Virus record (IMG/VR): IMGVR_UViG_3300009702_000009
Span: 1 to 36,794 of that record
Length of the DNA: 36,794 nucleotides
DNA from: a virus
Direction: 5' to 3' (one strand)
Part shown: piece after piece, positions 1 through 36,794 of the stretch
Layout of the letters: each line of letters starts with the position of its first letter
How positions within the stretch are numbered: the first letter of the stretch is position 1
Notes under the pieces: model-generated
Databases searched by the model: none
Told to the model about the DNA's origin: nothing
Seen by the model: only the letters and a program-made list of their open reading frames with translations
Translations under genes and position numbers: made by a program

Positions 1-123
1 GATGCTAATAAAAAATATACTAAAATTATTGTTGAAGGTGCTAATATTGACCAACAGAATGAAGAAACTTTTATTGGAAGTCAATCTCAAGTAACTTTAG
101 CTAAACCCCCTAAAAATATTAAA
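1..123. repeat. Terminal overlap, copy A (identical to 36672-36794)
   Basis: The same 123 nt (gatgctaataaaaaatatac...cctaaaaatattaaa) occur at both window ends. The repeat lies inside an open reading frame, so it is an assembly wrap-around of a circular or permuted genome rather than a physical end. Confidence 0.9.
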
Positions 124-837
124 GTGACAAATAGTAGTGGCACAGTATTAACTCAAACTACCAGTTCAATTTCAGGGGATTATACTGTTGATATTCAAGC
201 TATGACAATAGATTTTAGTCCTAATCAAACAGACCCTAAAGTTGAATATACATACCAATCTCAAGTGAGAGTAGAGATAGGTACAGGAAAAACATTGAAA
301 TTACAAAAATCTTATTTAGAGGATAAAGATGAAGCATTAAATTTGGCACTTTCAGCATTACAATTATATCAAGACGGAATCCAAACATCTAAATGGTTAA
401 AGAATGATGGAACAGATTTTGAAGATTATATTGTTGGGGAGACAATAATAGTTACTGATAATACTAATAATGTGTCAGGGGATTATGAAATCACTAGAGT
501 GGATTATGAATATCCAAATAGATTATATTTAACTGTTGGAGAAGATGAAGAGGGGATATTTGATTGGCAAAAAGAAGCTCAACAAAGGATACAAGAATTA
601 GAACAAAAAGAACAGGCGAGTGATTTTGTAACAAATTTTATTTATACTGTAGACAATTTAAATATTGCATTATCTACCGATATTATCACTTATCAAAAGA
701 AAGCTATCGATAATGGTTTTGTTTTAGATAGTAGTGTTTTAGATGGGACTGACATTTTAGATGGTTCTGATGACCAATCTTGGATTCCAATTGAAGGAAG
801 TAAATTTCCTATGAGTTTCCCTTGGGGGTTTAGTTAA
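1..837 (+). CDS. Tail tip protein, C-terminal part (same gene as 36111..36794)
   Basis: The frame is open from base 1. The GTG at 124 used by the ORF track is internal. Stop at 835-837. Confidence 0.6.
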   Translation, partial: DANKKYTKIIVEGANIDQQNEETFIGSQSQVTLAKPPKNIKVTNSSGTVLTQTTSSISGDYTVDIQAMTIDFSPNQTDPKVEYTYQSQVRVEIGTGKTLKLQKSYLEDKDEALNLALSALQLYQDGIQTSKWLKNDGTDFEDYIVGETIIVTDNTNNVSGDYEITRVDYEYPNRLYLTVGEDEEGIFDWQKEAQQRIQELEQKEQASDFVTNFIYTVDNLNIALSTDIITYQKKAIDNGFVLDSSVLDGTDILDGSDDQSWIPIEGSKFPMSFPWGFS

Positions 838-1209
838 ATGGTAGTTAATTTAACTAATATAACTCAAATTAAAACTGCAGTTTTAGATTCAATGGATATT
901 TATGATTATATTGCAGTAGGTACAGGAACTGCAACACCTTTAATTACAGATACAGCATTAGGAACTGAAGTTGATAGAAATATTACTACAAGTAACATAA
1001 AAAATGTTGCATTAGGAACTTATTTGTTTGCAACTACGTTCACTGTTTCAGAGGCTAATGGTAACACATTATCAGAGTATGGTGTATTTGATTTAGCATC
1101 AGGAGGAGAGATGTGGAGTAGGAATTTAATTACTCCTAATATTGTAAAAACCACTGATATTGAAGTTGTGGCATATACTCAAACAAATATAAAGGTAACT
1201 AACACATGA
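838..1209 (+). CDS. Small virion (tail-tip/fibre module) protein, paralog 1
   Basis: ATG abuts the upstream stop. Shares AVGTGT, DT.L.TE and EYGVFD...GG blocks with the 1250..1615 product. Confidence 0.6.
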   Translation: MVVNLTNITQIKTAVLDSMDIYDYIAVGTGTATPLITDTALGTEVDRNITTSNIKNVALGTYLFATTFTVSEANGNTLSEYGVFDLASGGEMWSRNLITPNIVKTTDIEVVAYTQTNIKVTNT

Positions 1210-1220
1210 ATGTGATAACA

Positions 1221-1230
1221 TTTATAAATA
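1221..1230 (+). promoter_or_regulatory. TATA-box-like 10-mer TTTATAAATA
   Basis: Exact 10-mer, 19 nt upstream of the ATG at 1250. Confidence 0.6.
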
Positions 1231-1249
1231 ATAAAGTTGAGGAAAAACT

Positions 1250-3582: not shown

Positions 3583-3753
3583 ATGGGAAAAAAACATATT
3601 AAGAGGATACACGAATTAGATAAGAAATTAGATAAGATAATAAAAAGCAATAATATACATTTATGGTTAAAAATAGCTATAATTTTATATTTGATTGCAT
3701 TATCAGGTGAAGTTGACCCTGTGCATTTACTTGAAATTCTATTGAGTGGTTAA
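3583..3753 (+). CDS. Small membrane protein, 56 aa (holin-like size and topology)
   Basis: Hand-translated: MGKKHIKRIHELDKKLDKIIKSNNIHLWLKIAIILYLIALSGEVDPVHLLEILLSG. ATG immediately follows the upstream TAA. One transmembrane helix. Confidence 0.4.
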   Translation: MGKKHIKRIHELDKKLDKIIKSNNIHLWLKIAIILYLIALSGEVDPVHLLEILLSG

Positions 3754-4329
3754 AACACTTTATTATATACTATAACTTTTAGAGATTAATTGTCGTTTTC
3801 AATTGACGACAAGAGCTTTTAGCTCTTCTTTACTACAATCATTTCTTCACACACTCAAGATATGATATCCTTTAGAAGGAGTCTTTATCCAATTCCTCCT
3901 TCTCTTTCACAACCTTTCTAGAATGTAAACATTTATATATAAGTTAATTAAAGAATATAGTATGCTTTACAAATTGATGTAAAGTTGAGGTCAGGGAGAC
4001 CTCACCAAAGAAGTATCTATAGATATATATTTCTATATTTTGATACTTATAAACTTATCGGTAAAAACTCCATATTAAAAGGTATGAGTAAAGTATTACT
4101 TAAATAGGTATGAGTAATACTCATACTCCTAAAAAAACTAAATGCAGTTACTAAAACCTATGATTTGCTTATATAATTAAGCAAAGAAGTTGTTAGTGGT
4201 AGTAATAACGTAAGTCGTCTAGAATATAGTATGATATATATTACATACAAAATAAAAAAAGGAGTATGTATGTACACACATATTACTTGAAGAAGTATTA
4301 CTCATACTTTAGTAATACTTTAATAAAAA
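3754..4329. promoter_or_regulatory. Large non-coding control region (candidate switch or origin)
   Basis: 576 nt with no credible ORF. Hairpins: ttgtcgt/acgacaa (about 3790-3812), gagct/agctc (3813-3825), gaggtc/gacctc (3987-4003), ttgctta/taagcaa (4164-4183). Repeated GTATGAGTAATACT / AGTATTACTCATAC motifs at 4082-4100, 4108-4126 and 4294-4319. Confidence 0.6.
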
Positions 4330-4616
4330 ATGGGAAATAGAAAAGCGATTTACTTGCAAGATAGGATGTTGAAATATTAGATAAATTAGTTCAACAAGCG
4401 AAAATAGATTATAGGGGCAAACAAAAAATAACTACTTCAACAGTTATCCAGAGTTTGATTAGAAAAGCAGGTCGAGACATTAAAGAAGTTTTATTAGAAG
4501 AATTGGTGTTTCATACTGAGAAAGCTAGAGTTGTAGAAGAAAAGATAAAGTTATTAAATAGGAAAAATATTGAAGAAGGTAACTTAATAACTGAACTCAA
4601 AGGGGTGTTTACTTAA
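4330..4616 (+). pseudogene. Ribbon-helix-helix (CopG/Arc-like) regulator gene interrupted by a frame change
   Basis: ATG 4330 gives MGNRKAIYLQDRMLKY, then TAG at 4378. The -1 frame continues from 4377 as LDKLVQQAKIDYRGKQKITTSTVIQSLIRKAGRD... to TAA 4614-4616, which overlaps the next ATG (TAATG). Joined, the product has a strand-helix-helix layout. Confidence 0.45.
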
Positions 4617-4851: not shown

Positions 4852-5070
4852 ATGTGCAACAAATGTGAGACTTATTCTAATAGGATTATTAGATTTAGGA
4901 ATGATGAGAAGGTAACAGGTAGAAAGATTGCAGATAAGAAGCGTAAAGCCCGATATACATGTCACAAATGTAATATCACATATACTTTTAAGAAACTCAA
5001 GAAAATTCCTCAAGTAAAATATGTTGAAGAAGGAAAAGTAGTTGGAACATTAAATAGATATCAGCGTTGA
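4852..5070 (+). CDS. Zinc-ribbon protein
   Basis: CNKC...CHKC pairs. ATG 4852 preferred over the overlapping GTG 4831 used by the ORF track. Confidence 0.5.
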   Translation: MCNKCETYSNRIIRFRNDEKVTGRKIADKKRKARYTCHKCNITYTFKKLKKIPQVKYVEEGKVVGTLNRYQR

Positions 5071-5084
5071 TTTCACTACAAAAT

Positions 5085-5142
5085 AATACAAAGGTTTATA
5101 TATGTAAGTATTTACATTATATTTGGTGAAAGACCACGTATG
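5085..5142 (+). promoter_or_regulatory. Promoter/operator/leader cassette, copy 1
   Basis: aatacaaaggTTTATATAtgtaagtatttacattata..GGTGAaagaccacgtATG. TATA 5095-5102, palindrome ATGTAA-gtat-TTACAT 5102-5117, GGTGA 5125-5129, ATG 5140. Confidence 0.65.
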
Positions 5143-5283
5143 GAAGCAATAAGATATATCAACACATTAAATAAGAATAAAGAAGAGTTAGTTAAGGCTC
5201 ACAAAGCTAATCGAGTTAACATTAAAAAGCGATTAGAGGAGATTAAATATCATATAATTAATAATAAGAGGTTATTAGAATAA
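5140..5283 (+). CDS. Small protein, 47 aa
   Basis: Hand-translated MEAIRYINTLNKNKEELVKAHKANRVNIKKRLEEIKYHIINNKRLLE. Its stop overlaps the next ATG (TAATG). Confidence 0.45.
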   Translation: MEAIRYINTLNKNKEELVKAHKANRVNIKKRLEEIKYHIINNKRLLE

Positions 5284-7309: not shown

Positions 7310-7440
7310 AATGTGGTAAAGAGTTTGTTTTAAAGGAAGCTCATATAAGATATAGGATAGAGAATTATTGTGATATTTTTTGTCATGCACGTTATGAAGC
7401 TAAGATATATGCTAGAATGCGTAATGAGAAAAGTTTATAA
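7285..7440 (+). CDS. Zinc-finger ORF (CxxC...CxxxC, TRASH/FCS-like) lacking a canonical start
   Basis: The frame open from 7285 reads ..KCLECGKEFVLKEAHIRYRIENYCDIFCHARYEAKIYARMRNEKSL. It contains no ATG/GTG/TTG and is the -1 frame of 7124..7309. Confidence 0.35.
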   Translation: MRKIPKCLECGKEFVLKEAHIRYRIENYCDIFCHARYEAKIYARMRNEKSL

Positions 7441-7443
7441 ATA
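7434..7443 (+). promoter_or_regulatory. TATA-box-like 10-mer TTTATAAATA
   Basis: Exact 10-mer, 22 nt upstream of ATG 7466. Confidence 0.55.
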
Positions 7444-7809: not shown

Positions 7810-7819
7810 TTTATAAATA
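7810..7819 (+). promoter_or_regulatory. TATA-box-like 10-mer TTTATAAATA with no ORF downstream
   Basis: Exact 10-mer, about 20 nt upstream of hairpin 7840-7886. Confidence 0.45.
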
Positions 7820-7839
7820 CCTTTAATCATATAAGAGTA

Positions 7840-7947
7840 GCTAAGGGATAATTCTTATCTATCATACGTGGCAGAATATCCTTAGCCAAATACTTTTTTA
7901 AAGGGGACTTTTCTTTAATCATATGTCCCCTTAATTAACTACTTTTT
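7840..7947 (+). ncRNA. Candidate small RNA, or a tandem terminator pair
   Basis: Hairpin gctaagggata/tatccttagc (7840-7886) followed by T6 (7894-7899). Hairpin aaggggac/gtcccctt (7901-7932) followed by T5 (7943-7947). No ORF. Confidence 0.3.
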
Positions 7948-7954
7948 AATAATA

Positions 7955-8007
7955 GAAACGTTTATATATGTAAGTATTTACATTATAATTGGTGAAAGCC
8001 ACGTATG
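7955..8007 (+). promoter_or_regulatory. Promoter/operator/leader cassette, copy 2
   Basis: TATA 7961-7968, palindrome 7968-7983, GGTGA 7991-7995, ATG 8005. Differs from copy 1 by a few bases and a 1-nt deletion. Confidence 0.65.
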
Positions 8008-8124
8008 GAACGAAAATATTTAGTAAAGATTAATAGAGTTATAGTATATCTAATATTAGTGCTGTATGTCTTGGACAAAGAAAATCTGCACACAATTATT
8101 TATGGAGATATACAAAATGAGTGA
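8005..8124 (+). CDS. Possible 39-aa hydrophobic peptide
   Basis: Starts at the cassette ATG: MERKYLVKINRVIVYLILVLYVLDKENLHTIIYGDIQNE. Overlaps the next ORF. Confidence 0.25.
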   Translation: MERKYLVKINRVIVYLILVLYVLDKENLHTIIYGDIQNE

Positions 8125-8497: not shown

Positions 8498-8737
8498 ATG
8501 AATGAATGGATATTAGAGACAGAGGAAAACATTTTACAGATATATAATAAAGAATTGCATTACAATATAGTAATATCAAAAATAGTATGTTGGAAAGTAT
8601 CTAATAAGACAATCAAATTAAGATTATTAGGTGCTGAGACAATAGAGTTATCTTGTAAAGAATTTGAACAATTATATAAGTTAAGTTTAAAAATAAAGAA
8701 CTCAATAATTAATTATGTCAAAAACAATTCACTTTAA
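8498..8737 (+). CDS. Hypothetical early protein
   Basis: 79-aa ORF; ATG abuts the upstream stop. Confidence 0.45.
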   Translation: MNEWILETEENILQIYNKELHYNIVISKIVCWKVSNKTIKLRLLGAETIELSCKEFEQLYKLSLKIKNSIINYVKNNSL

Positions 8738-8866: not shown

Positions 8867-8876
8867 TTTATAAATA
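8867..8876 (+). promoter_or_regulatory. TATA-box-like 10-mer TTTATAAATA with no ORF downstream
   Basis: Exact 10-mer, 18 nt upstream of the outer stem of the 8895-9023 structure. Confidence 0.45.
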
Positions 8877-9058: not shown

Positions 9059-9068
9059 TTTATAAATA
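9059..9068 (+). promoter_or_regulatory. TATA-box-like 10-mer TTTATAAATA
   Basis: Exact 10-mer, 19 nt upstream of ATG 9088. Confidence 0.6.
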
Positions 9069-9634: not shown

Positions 9635-9784
9635 ATGGCAAAGTTTGTATATATAGGCAATAAGAGATACGCTTTTAAGAGAAAAGTGAATAATATAGAG
9701 AAAAAACAATTAGAAGAACACCCTCAAAAGACAAGTTTTTATTTTCAAAGAGCAGGAAGTAAATATAATTGGTATATGTTGTAA
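9635..9784 (+). CDS. Small basic protein, 49 aa
   Basis: Hand-translated MAKFVYIGNKRYAFKRKVNNIEKKQLEEHPQKTSFYFQRAGSKYNWYML. Confidence 0.35.
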   Translation: MAKFVYIGNKRYAFKRKVNNIEKKQLEEHPQKTSFYFQRAGSKYNWYML

Positions 9785-9793
9785 CTTTTAAGT

Positions 9794-9851
9794 AATACAA
9801 AGGTTTATATATGTAAGTATTTACATTATAATTGGTGAAAGACCACGTATG
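9794..9851 (+). promoter_or_regulatory. Promoter/operator/leader cassette, copy 3
   Basis: TATA 9804-9811, palindrome 9811-9826, GGTGA 9834-9838, conserved ..ccacgtATG ending at 9851. Confidence 0.65.
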
Positions 9852-9855
9852 AAAA

Positions 9856-11227: not shown

Positions 11228-11237
11228 TTTATAAACA
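11228..11237 (+). promoter_or_regulatory. TATA-box-like 10-mer TTTATAAACA
   Basis: One mismatch to the consensus 10-mer; upstream of the HNH gene. Confidence 0.4.
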
Positions 11238-13236: not shown

Positions 13237-13246
13237 TTTATAAATG
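13237..13246 (+). promoter_or_regulatory. TATA-box-like 10-mer TTTATAAATG
   Basis: 19 nt upstream of ATG 13266. Confidence 0.55.
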
Positions 13247-13632: not shown

Positions 13633-14055
13633 ATGAAGGTAGTTAAGACGGAGACTAAAGGAAAAAATTATATCATAACATTACATGTTGATGATAGGAA
13701 ATTGGACCCTATTAAAGGTATTGAACCTAGTGTGGAATTATTGAATAATTTCATATTTAATAGTAAGAAAGAAGCATTAGAGTTTTATAGTGCGATTATT
13801 GACCAGAATAATATGGCTATTGCTGATAATGAAACAAGATTGGCACAAATGCCTAGAGATTCATTAGAGAAAGTGAATGAATTTGCTGAAGCTATTAATA
13901 GACATAAAGCGTTAAGTAATAAGAAAGCTGATAAAATAAGTGACTTAATCAAAGCACATGACAATATGCGTTCATTTGAGAAAAATATAGTTGAGATAAC
14001 TAAAAAGAATAAAGAAGTTAGTGATATTATTAAAGCAATCAAAAAAAATAAATGA
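13633..14055 (+). CDS. Coiled-coil protein, possible small terminase subunit (position only)
   Basis: Stop overlaps the terminase ATG (ATGA). No diagnostic motif. Confidence 0.3.
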   Translation: MKVVKTETKGKNYIITLHVDDRKLDPIKGIEPSVELLNNFIFNSKKEALEFYSAIIDQNNMAIADNETRLAQMPRDSLEKVNEFAEAINRHKALSNKKADKISDLIKAHDNMRSFEKNIVEITKKNKEVSDIIKAIKKNK

Positions 14056-16541
14056 AATCAAAAATACCTATTGTGGATTTGAAAACTATAGCAATAGCAA
14101 TGAATAAATATAAAGATGAAGAAGAAAAATTCAAAGCCACATTAAGGTATTGGTTTTCATTTAAAGAGAATATTGCAACATTTAGTCAATTTTTATTTCC
14201 TGAGCATATTCAAGGAGAAGTACAAGATTTTCATAAAGAGTTTTATAAAACTTTCTTTAGAGCAGGTAATGATGCATTAGGAGCTCCAAGAGGACATGCA
14301 AAGCAGTTAGCTGACAGCACACCTATATTAACTCCAAAAGGGTGGACTACACATGGAGAGTTAAAAGTTGGTGATTATGTATATAGTCCAAGTGGTAAGG
14401 CTATCAAAGTTGTAGGTAAAAATAAAAAAACTAATTCTGATTTTGTTGTAACAACAAGAGATGGAGAACAAATAAGATGTCATGGTTATCACGAATGGAC
14501 AGTATTTGATAGAAATAAAAAGAAATTTGTAACTCTTGAAACTATTGATATGATTGATAAAGAATCTCAAAGAAGTAGATTCCAATTGCCTTTAAGAAAT
14601 CCTATTCAAGGAACTCATAAATCTTTAGATTTGGACCCTTATTTTTTAGGGATGTGGTTAGGGGATGGTTCTTCCACTAAACCTTGTATCACTCATTCAC
14701 CTTTAGATATGGATAGTGTTAATTCAATTCCTTATAATGTGTCTACAGTTTGTACTCATAATACTACAGGAGTATTAACGACTTATTTTTCAAATCAAAA
14801 TATTATTGAAACAATTCGTAAAATGGATTTATATAAAAATAAGCATATACCTAAAGAGTATTTAGAAAGTTCTTTAAATCAAAGATTGCAATTAATGGCA
14901 GGATTAATTGATTCAGATGGACATATTGATAAAAAAAGAGGGAGAATTAGGTTTGTTAATATTAATTATAATTTAATAAAAAATGTTGAAGAGTTAGCAT
15001 TATCATTAGGTTCACGACCATATATTACTCAACAAGACCCTAAATTAAATCCTTCTACAAAAGGTAAACAAATAGTTTATACTATAGCTTTTGACCCTAT
15101 TATTGATATTCCTACACGTTTAAAAAGGAAAAAGATTAGAAGATTTCCAAATAGACAAAGGTTAGGTATAACTTCAGTTGAGTATAAACCTAACGGGGAA
15201 AAAGGTAACTGTATTCAGGTTGATAGTGAAGATGGTCTATATTTGGCAGGAAGAAGACTAATACCTACACATAATAGTACAACAATAGGGATTATATTTA
15301 TATCATTTAATATTGTAAATAAGTTAGAGAGATATATTGTTTATATTTCACAGAATCATACTAAAACCGTTCAATTCATTGAACCATTAAGGTTTGAGTT
15401 CAAGAATAATAATCGGTTGAGGTGGTTATATGGTAATCTAGCTCCAACAGGTGCTAAAGATGATGATGGAAGAGATAGGGAAGATTGTGTTGATATTGAT
15501 GGAGTAAGGATTGAAGCTGTATCATTTGAGAAGAATCTTAGGGGTTTCAAGTTTGGGAATATGAGACCCACATTAATTGTTGGAGATGATATTGATTCTG
15601 ATGAAAGAGTAGTCAATCCAATATTAAGAGACAAAGATAGACATAAATTGTTTAGAGTAATTATACCTAGTTTAGATATTAATGGCAGAATAAAGATGGT
15701 AGGAACAATTATACATCATGATTGTTTACTAAATAATAGAATTAAAGCTTGGAACGGAAAAGTCTTTCGTGCTATTAATGATGGTATATCTTTATGGCCA
15801 GAAAGATTTACTCGAGAGAAATTATCTGAAATAAAGAAAGATATAGGTTCAGCAGCATTTGAATCAGAATATATGAATAACCCAATTGACAATTCTAGTG
15901 CACTAATTAAAAGAGAATGGGTTGAACAATGTTTAGAACCAGAGATAAGCGTAAGTGATTGTGATTTTGATGAAGTGTATTTAGGGGTGGATTTTGCATT
16001 TTCTGATAGAGTTTCAGCTGACCAGAGTGCATTTGGGGATATAGGTGTAAAGTATCATGATAATGGTCAAATAGATAAATTAATATTATTGAATGCAGAA
16101 TGGGCTAAAGGATTAAGTTTAAATCAACATTGGGAAAAGATTGAAAGAAAGTATTTAGCTAATAGGCATGACTTAGTTGTATTAGAAGAGAATAGTATTA
16201 AAGGTAGTGTAGAAGATATTAAACAACTCAATATTCCTTTTAAATTCTTTTGGATGGGTGCAAGAGACCCAAAGAATAATGAGAAATCTAGTTCATTTAC
16301 TAGTAAGACTATAGGCAAGATTAATGCGATTAATCGATTAGCTGTAAGTTTTGAATATAAGAGATGGTTAATCCCATATAAAACTCAAAGAGAACAAGAT
16401 ATAGCAAATAAATTAATAGCAGAACTAACTAGTTGGGGATTAGTTGATGGAAAATTAGAGGAGTTTGGAGTTCATCCTGATATGCCTGTTGCATTGATAA
16501 TGGTAAATGAAGCATTAAGAGGTAATACAGGAGTGGCTTAG
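14052..16541 (+). CDS. terL: Terminase large subunit precursor (505-aa extein plus 324-aa intein)
   Basis: Splicing would give the Walker A GAPRGHAK|STT. Walker B-like LIVGDDIDSDE. Nuclease-domain LGVDFAFSD. Confidence 0.85.
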   Translation: MKSKIPIVDLKTIAIAMNKYKDEEEKFKATLRYWFSFKENIATFSQFLFPEHIQGEVQDFHKEFYKTFFRAGNDALGAPRGHAKQLADSTPILTPKGWTTHGELKVGDYVYSPSGKAIKVVGKNKKTNSDFVVTTRDGEQIRCHGYHEWTVFDRNKKKFVTLETIDMIDKESQRSRFQLPLRNPIQGTHKSLDLDPYFLGMWLGDGSSTKPCITHSPLDMDSVNSIPYNVSTVCTHNTTGVLTTYFSNQNIIETIRKMDLYKNKHIPKEYLESSLNQRLQLMAGLIDSDGHIDKKRGRIRFVNINYNLIKNVEELALSLGSRPYITQQDPKLNPSTKGKQIVYTIAFDPIIDIPTRLKRKKIRRFPNRQRLGITSVEYKPNGEKGNCIQVDSEDGLYLAGRRLIPTHNSTTIGIIFISFNIVNKLERYIVYISQNHTKTVQFIEPLRFEFKNNNRLRWLYGNLAPTGAKDDDGRDREDCVDIDGVRIEAVSFEKNLRGFKFGNMRPTLIVGDDIDSDERVVNPILRDKDRHKLFRVIIPSLDINGRIKMVGTIIHHDCLLNNRIKAWNGKVFRAINDGISLWPERFTREKLSEIKKDIGSAAFESEYMNNPIDNSSALIKREWVEQCLEPEISVSDCDFDEVYLGVDFAFSDRVSADQSAFGDIGVKYHDNGQIDKLILLNAEWAKGLSLNQHWEKIERKYLANRHDLVVLEENSIKGSVEDIKQLNIPFKFFWMGARDPKNNEKSSSFTSKTIGKINAINRLAVSFEYKRWLIPYKTQREQDIANKLIAELTSWGLVDGKLEEFGVHPDMPVALIMVNEALRGNTGVA
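14304..15275 (+). mobile_element. Intein with LAGLIDADG homing endonuclease, class-3-like
   Basis: Block A QLADSTPILT. Block B ..HGYHEW (Trp codon 14496-14498). LAGLIDADG motifs LGMWLGDGSS and MAGLIDSDGHI. Block F GNCIQVD (Cys codon 15210-15212). Block G IPTHN|S (Thr codon 15267-15269, Asn 15273-15275). Confidence 0.8.
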
Positions 16542-16823: not shown

Positions 16824-16833
16824 TTTATAAATA
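16824..16833 (+). promoter_or_regulatory. TATA-box-like 10-mer TTTATAAATA
   Basis: Exact 10-mer, 26 nt upstream of ATG 16860. Confidence 0.5.
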
Positions 16834-16859: not shown

Positions 16860-18797
16860 ATGAAGATGGGTAATTATGAGATTGTTTATGAACCAGAATA
16901 CAAAGCCGAGAATATTAACAAACAAGTTGAAGATAATGTTGCTGAACATCAAGAGTCAATGAGTAATAGTCCTCAATATAAGGTTATTATCCCTCAATAT
17001 ATGTATAAACCTGCATGGGGATTCCCTAGATATCAACCTTTAGGATTATTAAGACAATTAGGAAAAAACGTATATGCGTCAAGCATTTTCAAAACAATTA
17101 AAGATGTTATTATTGATACACCTAGAAAAGTTGTTGCTAAAGAAGGTATTGATGTTGATGAAGAACTTCAAAAGAAAATAGATGAATATCAGTTGTTTTT
17201 TGAAAGACCTAATCCTGAAGAAACATTTAGTTCATTTATTAGAAAAGTATTAGATGATATATTCAAATATGATTCAGGAGTAATTAATAAAGTATTTAAC
17301 CTTGCAGGGGAATTGATACAACTTAGAGCAGCACCAGGTGATACATTCAAAAAGAATCCAAACAAACGTGGATATTTGGATGAAAGAGATGATATAATTT
17401 TAGATAAAACACCTAGTAACGCATTAATTGAAGCGAATAAGAATCCAAGGAATATGGAAAATGGGTTTGCTAATACGGCAGCATTTCAATTTTATACAAA
17501 TTTTATTGATAAAGCTGCATATTTTCAGTTTGTTAATAGTGTAGCATCACAAATACCTATTCCTTATGGAAAAAGAGAATTATGTTGGCTTACAAGTAAC
17601 CCTTCAACAGATAATGTTTATACTAATGGTGCTCCATTAGAAGATGCAATAGATTTAATTCTTAGTTTAATTTATGGTTTAAAATTCAATTTAGATTTCT
17701 ATATGAATGGAAATACTCCTGAAGGGATTGTTAATGCTGTTGGTGCAACAAAGAAAGATTTAGCAAAGATTAAGGACCAATTAAATTTAAGTATTAACAC
17801 TCCAAGAGACCAATTTGGATTAAAGAGACGTATAGGATATAGAATGCCTATTGTTAATATGGATAATTTAGATTTTGTTAAATTGAATATGACAAGTAAA
17901 GAGATGGAAATACTTGAACAGCAGAAATGGTTTACTAAGATTCTTTGGATGAGATTTGGAGTTAATGCTGATGAAATGGGTTTTACCGAAAATAGTAATA
18001 GGGCAACATCAGGGCAACAAACTAAGAACAGTATAAGAAAAAGTATTAAACCTATTTATGTTATGATAGAAGAATGTTTCACATATGATATTTTATCTGA
18101 ATTTGAAGATGGAGATAAATTAAGGTTTGAATTTGATTTTTATGACCCTATAGACCAAAAAGAGATTAGGGATTTACAACAACAAGAGATATCTATGGGT
18201 ATTAATAGTGCTCGAAATATTATGAATGAAGAAGGAATTAATGCTGATGAGATAGAGAGTCAGAATCAAGATGCACAAGAGTTTGATTTCAATTTAAATA
18301 ATCCTGATGTACCTGAAGAGAATAATCCTTTTCCTAATGAGATGGATAAAGCAGATAAAAAAGAGAAAGAGAAACCTGAGACTAAATCCTTTACTACAAC
18401 AACAGGAGGTACAGGAACAACAGATAATGTAATGAACCCAATATATACTGATAGAAAAACAATTATTAAAAAGAATGGGAAATGGGTAGAAGATAAAGAG
18501 ACACGTCATGAAACTAAAGCAGAGGACACACCTGATGTTCCATTGGAAACCCCCTTAGAAAAAGTTATGGGAATGTTTATTAAAAAGATTGATGCCAAGA
18601 ATAAAGAGATTATAGAGGATTCAGAAGATTATGAAAATGAAATAGATGATGTGGAATTAAAACACAAATATATTAAACGAACAGGTAACATGGGGAATTA
18701 TAAATATTTTTATAGAGACAATAAGACGGGTAAAATCTTTCAAGGGTCTGCACCTAAAAAAGAAAGATATATGAAGAAATGGACGAATATGAATTAG
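16860..18797 (+). CDS. Portal protein with a long C-terminal extension
   Basis: 645 aa, immediately after the terminase region. Assigned by size and position. The C-terminal about 170 aa are acidic or low-complexity and carry the capsid-like segment. Confidence 0.65.
   Translation: MKMGNYEIVYEPEYKAENINKQVEDNVAEHQESMSNSPQYKVIIPQYMYKPAWGFPRYQPLGLLRQLGKNVYASSIFKTIKDVIIDTPRKVVAKEGIDVDEELQKKIDEYQLFFERPNPEETFSSFIRKVLDDIFKYDSGVINKVFNLAGELIQLRAAPGDTFKKNPNKRGYLDERDDIILDKTPSNALIEANKNPRNMENGFANTAAFQFYTNFIDKAAYFQFVNSVASQIPIPYGKRELCWLTSNPSTDNVYTNGAPLEDAIDLILSLIYGLKFNLDFYMNGNTPEGIVNAVGATKKDLAKIKDQLNLSINTPRDQFGLKRRIGYRMPIVNMDNLDFVKLNMTSKEMEILEQQKWFTKILWMRFGVNADEMGFTENSNRATSGQQTKNSIRKSIKPIYVMIEECFTYDILSEFEDGDKLRFEFDFYDPIDQKEIRDLQQQEISMGINSARNIMNEEGINADEIESQNQDAQEFDFNLNNPDVPEENNPFPNEMDKADKKEKEKPETKSFTTTTGGTGTTDNVMNPIYTDRKTIIKKNGKWVEDKETRHETKAEDTPDVPLETPLEKVMGMFIKKIDAKNKEIIEDSEDYENEIDDVELKHKYIKRTGNMGNYKYFYRDNKTGKIFQGSAPKKERYMKKWTNMN
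18378..18439 (+). repeat. 62-nt repeat, copy in the portal gene
   Basis: 60/62 identical to 28624-28685. Encodes ETKSFTTTTGGTGTTDNVMNP. Confidence 0.9.
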
Positions 18798-18982: not shown

Positions 18983-18992
18983 TTTATAAATA
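18983..18992 (+). promoter_or_regulatory. TATA-box-like 10-mer TTTATAAATA
   Basis: Exact 10-mer, 19 nt upstream of ATG 19012. Confidence 0.55.
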
Positions 18993-19812: not shown

Positions 19813-20325
19813 ATGGTAGAAACATTAACAAAAGAATATTTGAGTAAATTATATTACAAACAAAACAAAAGTTATAGAGATTTAGCTAAAATTACAGGTT
19901 TAAGTACTACAACAATTAGGAAGCGTTTTAAAGATTGGGGATTCAAATCTAGAAGTTTAAAAGAATCTTGTAAATTAAGATGTGAATTAAAACCTCAAAC
20001 TAATCCTGGAAGAAAAAATATGCCTAAAAATCCTAATTATGGAAAAGCTAATCATGCTTATAAAAAAGGGTATTGGATTAATGTTCACGGATACAAGAAG
20101 ATTTCAGTTGATGGAGAGGAAAGAATAGAACATAGATATATTTGGGAGCAGTTTCATCAAAAACCTATTCCTCCTAGACATCAAATACATCATATTAATG
20201 GGGATAAGTTAGATAATAGAATAGAGAATTTACAATGCATGACTAATTCGGAGCATCAAAAGTTACATAATCAACCAAGAGAAGAAACGACTGGAAGATT
20301 TATAAATAAGGAAGATGAGGAATAA
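19813..20325 (+). CDS. HNH endonuclease with N-terminal HTH
   Basis: SYRDLAKITGLSTTTIRKRF (HTH) and HQIHHINGDKLDNRIENLQCMTNSEHQKLH (HNH). Confidence 0.7.
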   Translation: MVETLTKEYLSKLYYKQNKSYRDLAKITGLSTTTIRKRFKDWGFKSRSLKESCKLRCELKPQTNPGRKNMPKNPNYGKANHAYKKGYWINVHGYKKISVDGEERIEHRYIWEQFHQKPIPPRHQIHHINGDKLDNRIENLQCMTNSEHQKLHNQPREETTGRFINKEDEE

Positions 20326-20722: not shown

Positions 20723-20732
20723 TTTATAAATA
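20723..20732 (+). promoter_or_regulatory. TATA-box-like 10-mer TTTATAAATA
   Basis: Exact 10-mer, 19 nt upstream of ATG 20752. Confidence 0.6.
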
Positions 20733-27441: not shown

Positions 27442-27451
27442 CTTATAAATG
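27442..27451 (+). promoter_or_regulatory. TATA-box-like 10-mer CTTATAAATG
   Basis: 21 nt upstream of ATG 27473. Confidence 0.5.
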
Positions 27452-27472: not shown

Positions 27473-28399
27473 ATGGGTCCGACAGATACTAAATTTCATT
27501 TGATAGAAGTCAAATCTGAATCAGGTAGAAATTATTTTATTGAAGGATTTGTTTCAACGACTGACCCAGATTTGTATAATGATATTGTTACAGAAGAAGC
27601 ACAAAAATCTATATTACATCAATTATTAAATCGTAATATTACTATGGATGAAGACCATGATGTTTGGAGAGATTCAAATACAGGGGAATCATTTGATAGG
27701 CCTCAAAACAAAATACCTGCTGCTAAAGTCGAAAAGGCAGAACTACGTGATGTAGGAGACGGAAGTACAGGAACTTTTGTTAGAGTTAAACTAAATAAGA
27801 ATTATCCTAGATTTAAAGCCTTATTAGGTTCAATTAAAGAAGGATTTGTTCACAGTTTTTCAATTGCATATAATGTATTGAAAGATTCTCCAAAACGAAT
27901 TGGAGAAGAAACTTTTAGAGTAATTGATGATTTAAATATATTCAATGTAGGAATCACAGGTGTCCCAGTAAACAATAATGCAAAATTTCAATTGGCTTTA
28001 AAGTCATTAAATATAAAAATGTCAGAAGAAAATAACATTGAAGAAATGCAAACTAAAATAGATTCTCTTGAAAAAGAGAATACTGAGTTTAAATCTCTAA
28101 TTGATGCAAAAGATGCAGAACTTAAATCTCTTAATGAGAAAGTGGAAGCATCTGAAACATCAGTTAAAGAAAAGAACGCAGAATTTAAATCTGTTAGTGA
28201 AGCAAAAGAAAAAGAATTAACTGAGCTTAAATCTAAGTTTGATAAAGTGGAAGCTTTAGAAAAACAAGTTGCTGAGTTAAAGAGCTTTCAAGAGAAAGTA
28301 GAGAAAACTCCTATTAATGGAGCAGAACTTAAATCTCAGGTTCCTTCACAAATCGTAGCAAGTGAAGTAAATTTCAAATCGCTACTACCCACTAATTAA
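27473..28399 (+). CDS. Prohead protease (HK97/S78-like) fused to a coiled-coil scaffold-like domain
   Basis: N-terminal YFIEGFVSTTDPDLYNDIV...MDEDHD...HSFSIAY resembles caudoviral prohead proteases. The C-terminal about 130 aa are E/K-rich with eight [LF]KS repeats. Confidence 0.6.
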   Translation: MGPTDTKFHLIEVKSESGRNYFIEGFVSTTDPDLYNDIVTEEAQKSILHQLLNRNITMDEDHDVWRDSNTGESFDRPQNKIPAAKVEKAELRDVGDGSTGTFVRVKLNKNYPRFKALLGSIKEGFVHSFSIAYNVLKDSPKRIGEETFRVIDDLNIFNVGITGVPVNNNAKFQLALKSLNIKMSEENNIEEMQTKIDSLEKENTEFKSLIDAKDAELKSLNEKVEASETSVKEKNAEFKSVSEAKEKELTELKSKFDKVEALEKQVAELKSFQEKVEKTPINGAELKSQVPSQIVASEVNFKSLLPTN

Positions 28400-30463: not shown

Positions 30464-30473
30464 TTTATAAATA
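30464..30473 (+). promoter_or_regulatory. TATA-box-like 10-mer TTTATAAATA
   Basis: Exact 10-mer, 20 nt upstream of ATG 30494. Confidence 0.6.
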
Positions 30474-31334: not shown

Positions 31335-31700
31335 ATGGCAACGATAATTAGTAGTGATGATTTCACTGCAAACGCTTTAGCAGACAATAGTGTTGATGTT
31401 ACAAGAATCCCTATAACTAAAACTTTAACTGGAAATGGGGATGAAATATTAACTGAAGGGACATCTGAAGTAATTTCAGTTATATTACATAAGAGAAAAC
31501 CCATTCTTTTATCAAATGAACAAGGATTAGAGATATTATCTGATGCTTATATCATGACAGGACCCTCTCAGGCTTTAAATAGAGATGATAAAATAACATT
31601 CGGTACTGAGAATTATAGGGTAATTAATAAACCTATTGTGAGGGGTCCTAGTGGAGACACTGTTTTTTATAAATACGCCGATATGGTATTTTTAAGCTAA
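31335..31700 (+). CDS. Head closure / neck protein (position)
   Basis: 121-aa ORF in the connector block. Confidence 0.4.
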   Translation: MATIISSDDFTANALADNSVDVTRIPITKTLTGNGDEILTEGTSEVISVILHKRKPILLSNEQGLEILSDAYIMTGPSQALNRDDKITFGTENYRVINKPIVRGPSGDTVFYKYADMVFLS

Positions 31701-32128
31701 TGGTATTCGATAAAACAACATTTATGAATGTAGTCACACAATTACTTACTAACGAATTTGTAAAAGAAGCTCCAAAAAAGACAAGTCATTTGGCTAGAAG
31801 TTTTCAATCCACAGTACGAATTGAAGGGTATAAAATAAAGTACACTTTACCTAAATATGCAGGAGCAGTTATGAATGGGTCAGCACCTCATGATATTATG
31901 GTTCGAGATAAAAAGATTTTAGCTGTTCCAATTAGAGAATGGGAAGGGAAATCCCCAAACGCATATGGGTCAGGTAAATTTCCAATGTTATCTAAAGATG
32001 GACAATTTGTTATGTTAGGTAAAAAAGTTAGACACCCAGGAAATAAACCTAATCCATTCATGAAAGATGTCTTACATAGAAAATTAAAAGATATAATCGA
32101 CCAAGCAATAGAGATAGCGAGTAGATAG
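31700..32128 (+). CDS. HK97 gp10-like neck/tail completion protein
   Basis: EAPKKTSHLARSF resembles the aP.dTG.Lr.Si motif of the gp10 family. Confidence 0.5.
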   Translation: MVFDKTTFMNVVTQLLTNEFVKEAPKKTSHLARSFQSTVRIEGYKIKYTLPKYAGAVMNGSAPHDIMVRDKKILAVPIREWEGKSPNAYGSGKFPMLSKDGQFVMLGKKVRHPGNKPNPFMKDVLHRKLKDIIDQAIEIASR

Positions 32129-32133
32129 TAAAC

Positions 32134-32143
32134 TTTATAAATA
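32134..32143 (+). promoter_or_regulatory. TATA-box-like 10-mer TTTATAAATA
   Basis: Exact 10-mer upstream of the tail operon (GTG 32195). Confidence 0.5.
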
Positions 32144-32194
32144 TCGTTATTGAAATTTAGTTAGTTAAAGGCAAGTGCCGATGACTAATGCTAA

Positions 32195-32869
32195 GTGGCA
32201 GACATAGATTATAAACAAATAAAAGAAGAATTACTTAATCGTATAAGGAATGCAGATGTTTTAACTATCTCAGAGAGAGGAGTTACTACTACTACAGATT
32301 CATTTAATGGTGATAATATACAAACCCAATTTACATTAACAAATTCAGGAATAAAAAACATTCGTGAAGTTAGAGTAGATACGAACATTCAAACACCATT
32401 AGTTGATTACACATATACTTTAACAGAAACTGATGAAAATAATAAAGTAATCACATTTACAACACCACCTGGAGTTGGGATATTAAATGTTGAAATAGAT
32501 TATGATTATAGTTCATCAGGAGATAAAATATATGATGATTTTCCTTTAGCTGAGATTAGTATTGATTCATACCCTAGAATAGGGTTTGAGATAATTTCAG
32601 ATAATACAACATTAGAAAGTTTTAATCGACAATTATATCAAACAGAGTTATTGATTTCATTTCAAGCATTTGGGGTGGGAAGAAATGCTACTGAAGATAT
32701 ATTATCAAATTTAAGGCAACATTTAATGGACAATAGAAACAATTTAGTAAGGCTTACTTATATTGAACCAAGAGGAAGAAGTAGGATTCTTTCTGTTGAA
32801 AGTACCAATGGAAAAATATTCAAAAGAACTACAGATTTTGCAGCACCTTTTGAATTTGAGGAGGGATAA
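32195..32869 (+). CDS. Tail terminator/completion-like protein
   Basis: GTG start (MAD...). 224 aa. Lies immediately before the tail tube gene. Confidence 0.45.
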   Translation: MADIDYKQIKEELLNRIRNADVLTISERGVTTTTDSFNGDNIQTQFTLTNSGIKNIREVRVDTNIQTPLVDYTYTLTETDENNKVITFTTPPGVGILNVEIDYDYSSSGDKIYDDFPLAEISIDSYPRIGFEIISDNTTLESFNRQLYQTELLISFQAFGVGRNATEDILSNLRQHLMDNRNNLVRLTYIEPRGRSRILSVESTNGKIFKRTTDFAAPFEFEEG

Positions 32870-32872
32870 AAA

Positions 32873-33790
32873 ATCGTAACATTCAGTAACATAAACAATA
32901 AATATTTAGCAGCAAAAGAAAGTACTTATGGAGTAACTCCTGTAACTTTCACAGAGGTTGACTTAGGTCATATACAGACTTTAAGTATTAAAGAAGAAGA
33001 AAATTCTGAAAAACTTAGAGGGATTAATAGTGGGCATGTTGCCGCATTATTTGAGGACGGATTATATTGGGCAAATGTATCAATAACTACATTATGTACT
33101 AAAGCATCATTACCTGCCCTTTTAGAATTGTGTTTTGGTGGGAGAACAGATGCAATAGATTATACTATCACCTCTAGTAATACTACTATTATAAGTTATT
33201 CAATTAAAGTAAGTTTAACTGACCCTACAACAGGTGATGTTGCTTTAATTAATGGATTTACTGTTAAGGATTTTGAAATTAATGTTGCTAAAGGTGAAAC
33301 TGTTAGTGTCACCATGAATGGTATTGCAAGAGAAGTGACAAAATCCACTGAAAGTATTTCTCCAACAAAAAACACTGATGCTATATTTAAAGATTTAGAT
33401 ACAAGCATTACTGTTGCAGGTAATTCTCATGTATTAAACACATTTACAATTTCAGGTAATTGGAATGTGACAGATGATGAAGGAAGAGGGATTGAAAGTG
33501 TATCTGCAGGAGATAGAAGATTAATTGCAAGAGTGATTAAACATGGGTTTGATGTATCAGGTAGTTATGAAGCTGAGGTGAGTGATAATTCAGAATTTGG
33601 ATATACAGAATCAAGAACTGATGAAGCCATAGTAGTCACTATAACTAGGGGTACAGATAATACACATGTATTTACTATGAGCAATACTAGAAGTTTTGGA
33701 AGAGATTTAGAATTAACTAATGAAAATTCTAAAAGGATTATCAGTTATGATTATGAAACATTAGATTGTGGAGTTACTGGAGACTTATAA
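32873..33790 (+). CDS. Major tail (tube) protein; 5' end uncertain (no canonical start before TTG 33128)
   Basis: The frame is open from 32870 and reads sensibly (..KYLAAKESTYGVTPVTFTEVDLGHIQTLSIKEEE..). GGAGG at 32860-32864 lies 8 nt before ATC 32873. Position is before the chaperone pair. Confidence 0.5.
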   Translation: MVTFSNINNKYLAAKESTYGVTPVTFTEVDLGHIQTLSIKEEENSEKLRGINSGHVAALFEDGLYWANVSITTLCTKASLPALLELCFGGRTDAIDYTITSSNTTIISYSIKVSLTDPTTGDVALINGFTVKDFEINVAKGETVSVTMNGIAREVTKSTESISPTKNTDAIFKDLDTSITVAGNSHVLNTFTISGNWNVTDDEGRGIESVSAGDRRLIARVIKHGFDVSGSYEAEVSDNSEFGYTESRTDEAIVVTITRGTDNTHVFTMSNTRSFGRDLELTNENSKRIISYDYETLDCGVTGDL

Positions 33791-34296: not shown

Positions 34297-34535
34297 AAAG
34301 GGAGTTTAGAAAATTAATCAAAACTCCCAAAGCAGTCACAAAAATAAGTCCTCAAGCAAAGAGAATAATAACTTTAAGTAATATGGCACTATTAGGAATT
34401 AATATCAATATAGATGATTTGTCAGCAACAGATGTACATAATTTAGAATATTTTGGTATGAGGAGAAGAAATAAAGAGGAAGAATCAAGATTCAAAGCAT
34501 TAGCAAATCTATTTAAAGCAGCATTTAGTAAATAA
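34287..34535 (+). CDS. -1 frameshift extension of the chaperone (GT-like product, about 182 aa in total)
   Basis: The -1 frame is open from 34278 to TAA 34533-34535 (..LEREFRKLIKTPKAV...FKALANLFKAAFSK). It has no independent start codon near its 5' end. Confidence 0.55.
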   Translation, partial: PKLEREFRKLIKTPKAVTKISPQAKRIITLSNMALLGININIDDLSATDVHNLEYFGMRRRNKEEESRFKALANLFKAAFSK

Positions 34536-34549
34536 GGTAAAAATAAAAA

Positions 34550-35653
34550 ATGGCAGATTTTGAAGCAGAAATAAATTTAAAGACACGAAGCAGTAAAGGT
34601 TCATCAAATAGTACTAAAAAAAGTGCAGGAGGGAGTGCGTTTGGTGGTGCTTTTGTTGGCAGCATATTAGGCAATATATTGAGTTCAGTAAAACAACTAT
34701 TTCAACCTATTAAAGCTATGGCAACTTTATTAGTTGCAGCATTATTTCCAATTTTAAAACCATTTTTAATTTTATTTATCAAAGTAGGGATTATGTTATA
34801 TAAATTTTTAAATAAAATTTTAGGAGGTGATAGAGGTCCTGCTGCCTCTTTATCTGGAACTGCAGGATTAAAACAAGAAGATATAGATAAAATTAAAGAA
34901 ACAGGTAAAAAATTAGGATTATCTAATGAAGAGGTAGATAAAAACATTGCTGAAGCTAATACTATAGAAAAAAAGAAAAATAAAGTTCTTGCAACAACAG
35001 GGATGATTCTTGGTGGTTTAGCAGGAATTGGTGCTGTACTTTTAGCAGGATTCTTAGGATTTACTGTAGGACTTCCTACATTACTTATAGGGGCATTTTT
35101 AGGTGCAGTTTTAGGTTTGATTGCTATTGTGTTTGGAAGGGATACTGCTGATTATCTTCTCGGATTTTTAACTGAGGCTTTTAATTATATTAAAGAAGCA
35201 TTTAGTAAGTTTCCAAGAAATATTAAAGCCGCATGGAAAGCTTTTATAGGTTTATTGTCTGACACATGGGATAAAGTTATCAAAACTTTATCTGAAGCTT
35301 TTTCAGGGATTGGAGATATAGCTTCTTCAGTTTGGGGATGGATTAAAGGATTATTTAAAGGAACAATAGATGTTGCAGGACAAGTTTGGAGTTTTATTAA
35401 AAGTTTATTTAGTGGAGGTTCTGGGGGTGGACACCATTCAAGTGTTAATGATGCAATAATTACTCCTAATGGTGATATAATTAGAACTAATCCTAGTGAT
35501 TATTTAATTGCAACAAAAAATCCTGATGCGATTGGAGGTGGAGGTTTATCTAATGTTAATGTAACTATAACAGGTGGATTAATCACAGAAGAAGTTGCAA
35601 GAGATATTGGAAAAATTCTTCAAAGAGAATTGAATTTAGGGGGTAGGTTTTAA
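34550..35653 (+). CDS. Tape measure protein (short, 367 aa)
   Basis: Follows the chaperone pair. Central hydrophobic, Gly-rich helices. C-terminal ..NDAIITPNGDIIRTNPSDYLIATKNP.. Confidence 0.6.
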   Translation: MADFEAEINLKTRSSKGSSNSTKKSAGGSAFGGAFVGSILGNILSSVKQLFQPIKAMATLLVAALFPILKPFLILFIKVGIMLYKFLNKILGGDRGPAASLSGTAGLKQEDIDKIKETGKKLGLSNEEVDKNIAEANTIEKKKNKVLATTGMILGGLAGIGAVLLAGFLGFTVGLPTLLIGAFLGAVLGLIAIVFGRDTADYLLGFLTEAFNYIKEAFSKFPRNIKAAWKAFIGLLSDTWDKVIKTLSEAFSGIGDIASSVWGWIKGLFKGTIDVAGQVWSFIKSLFSGGSGGGHHSSVNDAIITPNGDIIRTNPSDYLIATKNPDAIGGGGLSNVNVTITGGLITEEVARDIGKILQRELNLGGRF

Positions 35654-36111
35654 TGGCTTATAGTATTACTATTACTAATAGTAATGGAAAGAAATATAGA
35701 TTTTATGATGCAGAGGTTACAACTGCTTCATTTGCTTATGGAACAAAGATGTTTAAACAATCTCTACCTGACGATAATGGGGAGAATGCGATAGTTATTA
35801 ATTTAGGTAAAGATAAAAGCATTAGTGCTGCATTCAAATTAGTTGATACCACAAACACAGCTGAAGATGCTGCAATGGGTACACATACTAGTACAATATA
35901 TACTATTGCCCAAAAATTAACTTATATTATTGATACTATTATCACACCAGGTATTGAAGACACATATACTATTGATTTACAAACCCACACAGGAAGTATT
36001 ACAGGCAAAATAGGGATTATTGAGGATTGGAATTTTGATTTTTCAAATCAAAACCCTAATATCTTGATGGGTTCATTAAGATTTAGTATTGGTGGTGGAT
36101 TAACACAATAA
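35653..36111 (+). CDS. Distal tail protein candidate (position only)
   Basis: ATG overlaps the tape measure stop (TAATG); 152 aa. Confidence 0.35.
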   Translation: MAYSITITNSNGKKYRFYDAEVTTASFAYGTKMFKQSLPDDNGENAIVINLGKDKSISAAFKLVDTTNTAEDAAMGTHTSTIYTIAQKLTYIIDTIITPGIEDTYTIDLQTHTGSITGKIGIIEDWNFDFSNQNPNILMGSLRFSIGGGLTQ

Positions 36112-36794
36112 TGGTTACTCATAAATTTAAATTTGGAACAGTAGAAACAGGGTATTTATTAGTTGCATCAGCAAGATATTCTGAAACTACAACTACAGTA
36201 AGCAAAATGAATTTTGTTTTACAATCTAGTTTAACTACATTTTTATTAGGGGATATTGTAGAATTTTATGATTCAACAACAACACTTAAATTCAAAGGGG
36301 AAATCACTAGAGCTGAAGTAGCTTCTTCTGTTTGGACAATTGAAGTAAAAGATTTAGGAAATATATTAACAAATACTAGATTCACTACAGTTTATAGAAA
36401 TAAGAGCCCTGAATTTATTATTGAAGATATTATTACAAATTACACAACTTTAACATATAGTAGCACAATTTCTACAGGTGAAATATTACCAAAACAGACT
36501 TTTAGAGATGATATATTACTTGACGGAATTACTAAAATGATGGAAACTTTTAATGGTACATTTAGTGTTTCAAAAACAGGAATATTCACATTAATTCAAA
36601 AACAAAATTCAATTAATACAAATCAGATTAATTCAACAAATGGTGATATTTTACAAGGAAAATGGAAGAATGATGCTAATAAAAAATATACTAAAATTAT
36701 TGTTGAAGGTGCTAATATTGACCAACAGAATGAAGAAACTTTTATTGGAAGTCAATCTCAAGTAACTTTAGCTAAACCCCCTAAAAATATTAAA
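36111..36794 (+). CDS. Tail tip protein (Tal-like by position), N-terminal part; continues across the wrap into 1..837
   Basis: ATG at 36111 overlaps the TAA of the upstream gene (TAATG). The frame is open to the window end and matches the frame of 1..837 once the 123-nt overlap is collapsed (465 aa combined). It follows the tape measure and a Dit-like gene. Confidence 0.6.
   Translation, partial: MVTHKFKFGTVETGYLLVASARYSETTTTVSKMNFVLQSSLTTFLLGDIVEFYDSTTTLKFKGEITRAEVASSVWTIEVKDLGNILTNTRFTTVYRNKSPEFIIEDIITNYTTLTYSSTISTGEILPKQTFRDDILLDGITKMMETFNGTFSVSKTGIFTLIQKQNSINTNQINSTNGDILQGKWKNDANKKYTKIIVEGANIDQQNEETFIGSQSQVTLAKPPKNIK
36672..36794. repeat. Terminal overlap, copy B (identical to 1-123)
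   Basis: Direct comparison with bases 1-123. Unit genome length is 36,671 bp. Confidence 0.9.

Follow-up and report, generated by a model that had tools for sequence, protein, structure and literature searches.

The window studied here is the whole 36,794-nt stretch of the IMG/VR virus record IMGVR_UViG_3300009702_000009, and it carries the genome of a head-tailed virus (Caudoviricetes) with a G+C content of about 30% and with all of its genes on the + strand. Our subject is a 10-mer, TTTATAAATA, which recurs along the coding strand at a near-constant distance from start codons and which probably marks archaeal core promoters. Because the first 123 nt of the window (1-123) are repeated exactly at its end (36672-36794), the genome is complete, one unit of it measuring 36,671 bp. 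A gene of 465 amino acids spans the assembly junction (36111-837), and the open reading frame (ORF) apparently starting at GTG 124 is therefore an artefact of the linear window.

The viral nature of the genome is evident from matches in Pfam and PHROGs to a large terminase subunit (14052..16541), interrupted by a LAGLIDADG intein (14304-15275), a portal protein (16860..18797), which also served as the query for collecting relatives, a prohead protease (27473-28399) and an SU10-like major capsid protein (28402-29580). Other products include a Mu-F-like head protein, two HNH endonucleases, and tail-tube, tape-measure-like and tail-fibre-like proteins. Pfam and PHROGs revealed no sigma factor, RNA polymerase, endolysin or integrase among the ORFs of the window, no peptidoglycan hydrolase is detectable across the complete genome, and tRNA and Rfam scans of the window yielded no matches.

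Copies of the 10-mer and their surroundings

TTTATAAATA is present in twelve exact copies on the + strand, against an expectation of about 0.8 per strand; dinucleotide-preserving shuffles produced 1.55 +/- 1.17 matches on the two strands combined, and never more than 6. All the exact copies point in the same direction as the genes, and the matches on the - strand, at 16822, 20721 and 30462, merely reflect the palindromic overlap TATTTATAAATA. Ten of the twelve are intergenic, in a window where intergenic DNA constitutes 9.6% (P = 3.5e-9). An initial annotation of the window had located ten copies, all of them correctly, and had missed those at 20299 and 31666; the near-copies that it listed at 11228, 13237 and 27442 are also present and are joined by a further one at 8686, bringing the exact and variant promoter copies to about 16 in all. 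One-mismatch 10-mers, taken as a class, show no clear enrichment (48 found versus 32.6 expected), and the enriched form is the exact one.

Counted from the first nucleotide of the motif, the ATG lies at exactly +29 for five exact copies: 1221..1230 (ATG 1250), 9059..9068 (ATG 9088, which has no Shine-Dalgarno (SD) sequence), 18983..18992 (ATG 19012), 20299..20308 (ATG 20328, with the motif inside the 3' end of an HNH gene) and 20723..20732 (ATG 20752). The probability that at least five of the twelve would do so by chance is 6e-6. For four further exact copies the distance is 30 nt (30464..30473, preceded by a run of six Ts, ATG 30494), 32 nt (7434..7443, ATG 7466), 34 nt (31666..31675, ATG 31700) and 36 nt (16824..16833, ATG 16860 of the portal gene), and no ORF lies downstream of three of the twelve. 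The copy at 31666 is situated within the 3' end of a gene, lacks the TA dinucleotide at +28/+29 that is described below, and is the weakest candidate. That dinucleotide is present at 7434, at 16824 and at 32134..32143; with GTG 32195 as the start of the next ORF, a leader is predicted for the last of these. Among the near-copies, TTTATAAATG (13237..13246, ATG 13266) and TTTAAAAATA (8686..8695, within the 3' end of the preceding gene, ATG 8715) retain the 29-nt spacing, CTTATAAATG (27442..27451) precedes the prohead protease gene with ATG 27473 at +31, and TTTATAAACA (11228..11237), with TA at +28/+29, lies upstream of an HNH endonuclease gene starting at ATG 11283.

Fourteen sites were aligned on the motif in order to examine their flanks. 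At 4 and 3 nt upstream, A occurs in 11 and 12 of the 14 sites, respectively (background 0.39), and this AA doublet, at -33/-32, resembles part of an archaeal B recognition element (BRE). On the downstream side, position +28 is T in 11 sites and position +29 is A in 12, with the two combined as an initiator-like TA in 11 of the 14. Of the six exact copies for which the ATG lies elsewhere or is absent, five retain the dinucleotide (P = 1e-4), which is therefore not a by-product of the start codon. All ten TATA-proximal genes start with ATG, and a T directly precedes that codon in eight of them compared with 8 of the 58 other genes (P = 6e-5). The layout is then AA, 2 nt, TTTATAAATA, 18 nt and T/A. 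The spacing predicts leaders of 0 nt at six genes (those of the five exact copies at +29 and of 13237), of 1-3 nt at three, including 3 nt for ATG 7466, and of 7 nt at the portal gene; leaderless units would be expected at about 10 of the approximately 19 predicted promoters. Leaderless mRNAs are defined by 0-5 nt ahead of the start codon, with limits as high as 8 nt also in use.

The gap of 19-22 nt between the 10-mer and the ATG, described for eight genes in the initial annotation, is borne out by these data, whereas the accompanying statement that no ribosome-binding site intervenes does not hold for ATG 1250, where GAGG is found 7 nt before the start codon and provides a dual signal. GAGG also occurs 7 nt before ATG 20328. 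The internal genes of operons carry GGAGG or GGTGA elements, as had been noted.

Signals of the bacterial type were not found beside the motif. There is no conserved A at what would be position -11 relative to the inferred start (A in 3 of the 14 aligned sites), no sigma-70 -10 hexamer in the spacer and no -35/-10 pair next to the motif, and sigma-70-type sites in the window, with a -35 TTGACA and a -10 TATAAT separated by 16-18 nt, are not enriched over shuffled sequences (107 found versus 120 expected, and 92 versus 101). Terminators consisting of a hairpin and a T-run are no commoner than in shuffles. Five of the six intergenic T-runs are located 8-55 nt upstream of a predicted promoter, an arrangement that would fit oligo-T termination followed by re-initiation.

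Two of the exact copies are orphans. The promoter at 7810..7819 has no downstream ORF and a predicted start at A7839, and its predicted transcript (7839-7947) would form two hairpins, with a T-run after each (z = -4.0). For the promoter at 8867..8876 the predicted start is A8896, after which come about 160 nt of non-coding DNA; the predicted transcript (8896-9045) includes a region of about 130 nt with a 9-bp closing stem beginning at the predicted +1 (z = -0.96). Neither of these candidate small RNAs has a match in Rfam, and a pattern search of IMG/VR for the one following the 7810 promoter returned a single chance match in an unrelated ORF.

A second putative promoter class is represented by the TTTATATA sites at 5095, 7961 and 9804. 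The initial annotation had described these as three cassettes and they prove to be parts of a repeat of about 78 nt, present in three copies with 69-88% identity. The first copy (5068..5145) consists of the TATA element at 5095, TTTATATATG, the palindrome TGTAAGTATTTACA and GGTGA, followed by ATG 5140; the second (7934..8011) has its TATA element at 7961 and ATG 8005, and the third (9777..9854) at 9804 and ATG 9849. The three copies are joined to three different small ORFs. GGTGA comes directly after the predicted start. This class, with the order TTTATATATG-TGTAAGTATTTACA-...GGTGA, would produce a leader of about 15 nt, and the repeat looks like a duplicated regulated, possibly early, promoter module.

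Related viruses and the host

Homologues of the portal protein are confined to metagenomic relatives, and at least 259 contigs in IMG/VR encode such a relative of the portal. For all statistics on these relatives the window itself was left out. Distances from TTTATA[AT] to ATG peak at 29 nt (19 cases), followed by 30 (7) and 31 (6), with 0-4 cases at each distance between 7 and 28. Of the 26 exact 10-mers that the relatives carry on their coding strand, 8 have an ATG at +29 or +30 and 11 have a non-ATG TA at +29; on the opposite strand there were none. T precedes the ATG at 68% of TATA-proximal starts versus 17% of others (P = 3e-18), and SD-like tetramers are found at 25% of the TATA-proximal starts versus 44% of the others (P = 0.003). 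A weight matrix trained exclusively on the relatives' sites matched the + strand of the window 25 times and its - strand 10 times.

Dozens of related virus contigs from metagenomes show the same motif, with its 29-nt spacing, before orthologous genes. Promoters are kept ahead of the orthologous portal, protease, 99-amino acid and 278-amino acid genes in contigs L001, L006-L010 and L087-L090. Before the portal gene the relatives retain a promoter 29-45 nt from the ATG, and the position of the protease promoter is also kept; the promoter at 20723 has orthologues spaced at 29-30 nt in L001, L009 and L010, and that at 30464 has orthologues spaced at 29 nt in L087, L088 and L010. Among orthologous promoters the sequence of the 19-nt spacer has diverged fully while the length of 29-30 nt is held in many of them, and at the conserved positions some relatives carry the TATA-like variants TTTAAATA, TTTATAAACA and TTTAAAAAG. 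The gene context in L087-L090 includes Prim-Pol/D5 primase-helicase, ParB, methylase, Mom and PAPS reductase genes, none of which is diagnostic of the host domain.

Among species-representative genomes, the best portal match (58% identity) is on a 23-kb contig of a metagenome-assembled genome (MAG) of Candidatus Woesearchaeota. Relatives with about 35% identity were found in a second Woesearchaeota MAG, in a Methanosarcinales MAG and in an 'Akkermansia' MAG. The contigs from the latter two have G+C contents of 29-33%, which do not fit the named organisms, and they are almost certainly mis-binned. In the protein searches proposed in the initial annotation, the portal leads to a Woesearchaeota MAG, the terminase and portal matches in cultured viruses are mostly to bacterial phages, and the capsid protein has no match in the phage collection. 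No evidence for integration was obtained, with the Woesearchaeota MAG contig L006 showing only viral-type genes over the 20 kb examined.

Tailed viruses and proviruses have been linked to DPANN archaea, including Woesearchaeales, from metagenomes (PMC11705971, PMC11310336, PMC12647753), and DPANN/Woesearchaeales tailed viruses are also attributed to Wu et al. 2024, as cited in PMC13465236. The virus in the window resembles them in its size class (about 36-41 kb), its low G+C content, its link to a DPANN MAG and the prevailing lack of integrases; unlike in the present analysis, promoters were not analysed in PMC11705971 and PMC13465236, where the word 'promoter' occurs 0 times. The group, described in the initial annotation as sparsely sampled, is indeed so, yet it is already known from metagenomes (PMC11705971, PMC11310336). 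The earlier proposal of a head-tailed virus of an AT-rich archaeon finds support here, given that the nearest relative in a named genome belongs, by binning, to a Woesearchaeota MAG. The host is most probably an AT-rich DPANN archaeon, and we would judge the chances of its being specifically a member of the Woesearchaeota to be about even.

Further features of the genome

The terminase intein comprises 324 amino acids and is inserted in the P-loop, between GAPRGHAK and S. Its first residue is Gln (QLADSTPILT...) and not Cys or Ser, and Trp (HEW), Cys (NCIQV) and Thr (THN) occupy positions as in class 3 'WCT' inteins. It is absent from three relatives, L001, L087 and L088. The two HNH homing-type endonucleases (11238-11873 and 19813-20325) are related to one another, with a 73-nt stretch at 73% identity, and together with the intein endonuclease they bring to three the homing-type nucleases in one small genome.

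A 78-nt in-frame stretch is common to the C-terminal part of the portal gene (18378-18455) and the N-terminal part of the capsid gene (28624-28701), with 88% identity and encoding the peptide ETKSFT(T/A)TTGGTGTTDNVMNP... The capsid N-termini of relatives L007 and L087 likewise resemble the portal copy in a sequence match, and the stretch may constitute a recognition segment for the protease or for a scaffold.

Between the portal and head-morphogenesis genes and the prohead protease gene lies an ORF of 1963 amino acids (21353-27244), which has no sequence match in Pfam, PHROGs or PDB and is rich in Thr (14%), Gly (10%) and Ser (10%). The possibility that it encodes a virion RNA polymerase was considered and rejected on the grounds of the missing family and PDB matches, the fibre-like T/G/S-rich composition and the lack of any polymerase motif. 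In relative L087 its place is taken by a smaller LamG-domain protein, and LamG- or CARDB-domain proteins occur elsewhere in the locus in L088 and L002.

The region 3754-4454 contains 700 nt without an ORF, with several hairpins and with palindromes such as GTATGAGTAATACTCATAC and GAGGTCAGGGAGACCTC, and is a candidate for a replication origin or control region. In 32128-33130 the tail genes have poor candidate starts (GTG 32195 and TTG 33128) and there is a gap of 258 nt before the tail-tube gene, which may result from mis-called starts or from recoding. L001, the closest relative borne on a MAG, carries at 1-1823 genes for GTP cyclohydrolase I and for QueD-like and radical-SAM QueE-like proteins, which the window lacks and which suggest a 7-deazaguanine modification of the L001 DNA.

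Probable archaeal promoters and the alternatives

Archaeal promoters with a BRE and a TATA box, leaderless mRNAs, and the use of both by archaeal viruses are well established. The elements described above are very probably of this type, that is, BRE/TATA/initiator (Inr) promoters which give rise to leaderless mRNAs in a DPANN-associated tailed virus. Having neither an RNA polymerase nor a sigma factor of its own, the virus would be transcribed by the RNA polymerase of its archaeal host. TATA-binding protein (TBP) of the host would bind TTTATAAATA as a TATA box, transcription factor B (TFB) would bind the BRE, with its core AA 3-4 nt upstream of the motif, and also set the direction of transcription, and the polymerase would start at the conserved T/A located 28/29 nt beyond the motif's first T. 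At about ten promoters the starting A would coincide with the A of the ATG, or lie 1-3 nt from it, generating leaders of 0-3 nt and leaderless mRNAs that are translated without an SD sequence, and the later genes of operons would be translated via their GGAGG/GGTGA sites. The GAGG retained at promoters 1221 and 20299 would permit the same gene to be translated also from a read-through polycistronic mRNA, and the orphan copies at 7810 and 8867 may drive small RNAs. We infer the host, as we do the binding of TBP and TFB, the transcription start and leaderless translation.

This archaeal, leaderless reading had been advanced in the initial annotation, and it gains support from the position of the TATA element, the BRE-like AA, the T/A, the ATG starts, the GGAGG/GGTGA elements of internal genes, the lack of bacterial signals and machinery in the window, the conservation in relatives and the Woesearchaeota MAG in which the nearest relative from a named genome was binned. 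The promoters of M. jannaschii show a TWTATATA box, a BRE with a conserved position at -34, a proximal element and an Inr (PMC2699501), and median distances from the transcription start in T. kodakarensis are 23 bp for the TATA box and 33 bp for the BRE (PMC4247193). The predicted promoters of the window share with these a TTTATAWA-type element of 8-10 nt about 23 bp upstream, an A-rich BRE at about -33/-34, an A/T-rich proximal region and a pyrimidine/purine initiator, and they also share the placing of some promoters within the 3' ends of upstream genes and of orphans before non-coding transcripts. They differ from cellular archaeal TATA boxes, which vary at several positions (PMC2699501), in having twelve copies with the same 10 nt throughout, and the box lies about 1 nt nearer to the inferred start (-29 to -22). 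According to GeneMarkS-2, the promoter box of archaeal leaderless genes precedes the start by about 26 nt, compared with about 10 nt in bacterial leaderless genes (PMC6028130). As in archaeal leaderless or 'group D' genomes (PMC6028130, PMC4983044), the box here is about 26 nt from the ATG of the first gene, downstream genes carry SD sequences, and for some genes a leadered route exists beside the leaderless one. In contrast to Haloferax volcanii and S. solfataricus, with leaderless fractions of 72% and 69%, respectively (PMC4983044), we are dealing with a virus of an uncultured AT-rich lineage for which the leaderless fraction is read from the sequence alone.

A number of observations weigh against the archaeal reading. 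The start position and the leaderless status are predictions from sequence, and in the window by itself the difference in SD sequences (GGAG, GAGG, GGTG or GTGA), with 2 of 10 TATA-proximal genes versus 26 of 58 others, is a trend (P = 0.18). The link to the host depends on MAG binning, and for two of the four MAG matches the binning is plainly unreliable. Among cultured viruses, the terminase is closest to bacterial phages, with 23-33% identity, and the portal, at about 22%, mostly to bacterial phages together with two Halorubrum viruses; since these matches are remote (22-33%) and mostly bacterial, similarity to cultured viruses is uninformative on the host. L087, with 56% portal identity, encodes a class II (bacterial/eukaryotic-type) CCA-adding enzyme together with tRNA-Gln and tRNA-Arg genes (501-1535 and 3625-3776), which is mildly at odds with an archaeal host. 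Known archaeal viruses did not provide clean controls, with SIRV2 showing a TATA-to-ATG peak at 43 nt (leadered) and phiCh1 having weak and scattered A/T boxes, and neither was used. Finally, the motif contains the octamer of T4 late promoters, TATAAATA.

These T4 promoters also precede virion genes, and they need the phage-encoded gp55, with gp33 and gp45. If the virus were a phage of an AT-rich bacterium with promoters of this kind, TATAAATA would act as a -10-like element for a gp55-like sigma factor, with a start 6-7 nt downstream and a leader of about 13 nt, and the mostly bacterial affinities of the terminase and portal among cultured viruses would be accounted for. We consider this very improbable, given that neither gp55-, gp33- nor sigma-like proteins were found in any ORF with Pfam and PHROGs, and that a -10 element explains neither the conserved T/A 19-20 nt downstream of the motif, at +28/+29, nor any role for the AA upstream. 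Moreover, in the T4 late region the distance from octamer to ATG can be anything between 22 and 36 nt and GGAG, GAGG or AGGA is present in almost every leader, whereas here the distance is fixed at 27 nt and eight of the ten spacers lack an SD sequence although the internal genes use strong ones. A promoter for the host sigma factor of an AT-rich bacterium that tolerates SD-less leaders, whether Bacteroidota-like or belonging to the Patescibacteria/Candidate Phyla Radiation (CPR), in which the 10-mer would be an unusual -10, -35 or UP element, is also improbable, if slightly less so. CPR bacteria and DPANN archaea have habitats and G+C contents in common, viral contigs can be mis-binned, as was seen here, and the leaders are A-rich as in Bacteroidota. 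Against this stand the missing -35/-10 pair, the lack of conservation of A(-11) and the absence of enrichment of sigma-70-like sites. The motif does not contain the TTTG or TAnnTTTG elements of Bacteroidota, whose genomes, unlike the 26 SD-bearing genes among the 58 here, largely lack SD sequences; no peptidoglycan hydrolase is detectable in the complete genome; and the box of bacterial leaderless genes lies at about 10 nt from the start and not at about 26 (PMC6028130).

It is as improbable as the T4-type explanation that the 10-mer functions mainly as a binding site for a virus-encoded regulator, or as a DNA-structural element at gene boundaries, rather than as a core promoter. Twelve identical copies, more uniform than the TATA boxes of cellular archaea (PMC2699501), and the partial palindrome that forms TATTTATAAATA at three sites would suit such a role, but the strict coding-strand orientation, the fixed distance to T/A or ATG and the upstream AA constitute the signature of a core promoter. 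The relatives hold the position and the spacing yet allow TATA-like variants, as is expected for TBP and not for a sequence-specific regulator, and no DNA-binding regulator was identified.

Assigning hosts to uncultivated viruses is difficult, and in the present case the identity to the nearest cultured relatives, mostly bacterial phages, is only 22-33%. The archaeal promoter grammar constitutes an independent, sequence-only call of the host domain, archaeon versus bacterium, and it agrees with the Woesearchaeota MAG association. We propose tentatively, with a little less than even confidence, that the motif, the 29-nt spacing and the T/A represent the native core-promoter grammar of Woesearchaeota-like DPANN archaea, that the virus belongs to a large, non-integrating lineage of DPANN tailed viruses which is assignable to archaea by promoter grammar alone, and that some of the orphan promoters drive small RNAs. 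To our knowledge, no transcription starts have been mapped for this phylum. The result leaves knowledge of archaeal transcription unchanged. If the host link is true, it would supply a first working consensus, AAnnTTTATAAATA, 18 nt and T/A, for transcription initiation and leaderless translation in a DPANN lineage that is not yet culturable, and a near-complete predicted transcription map for one of its viruses.

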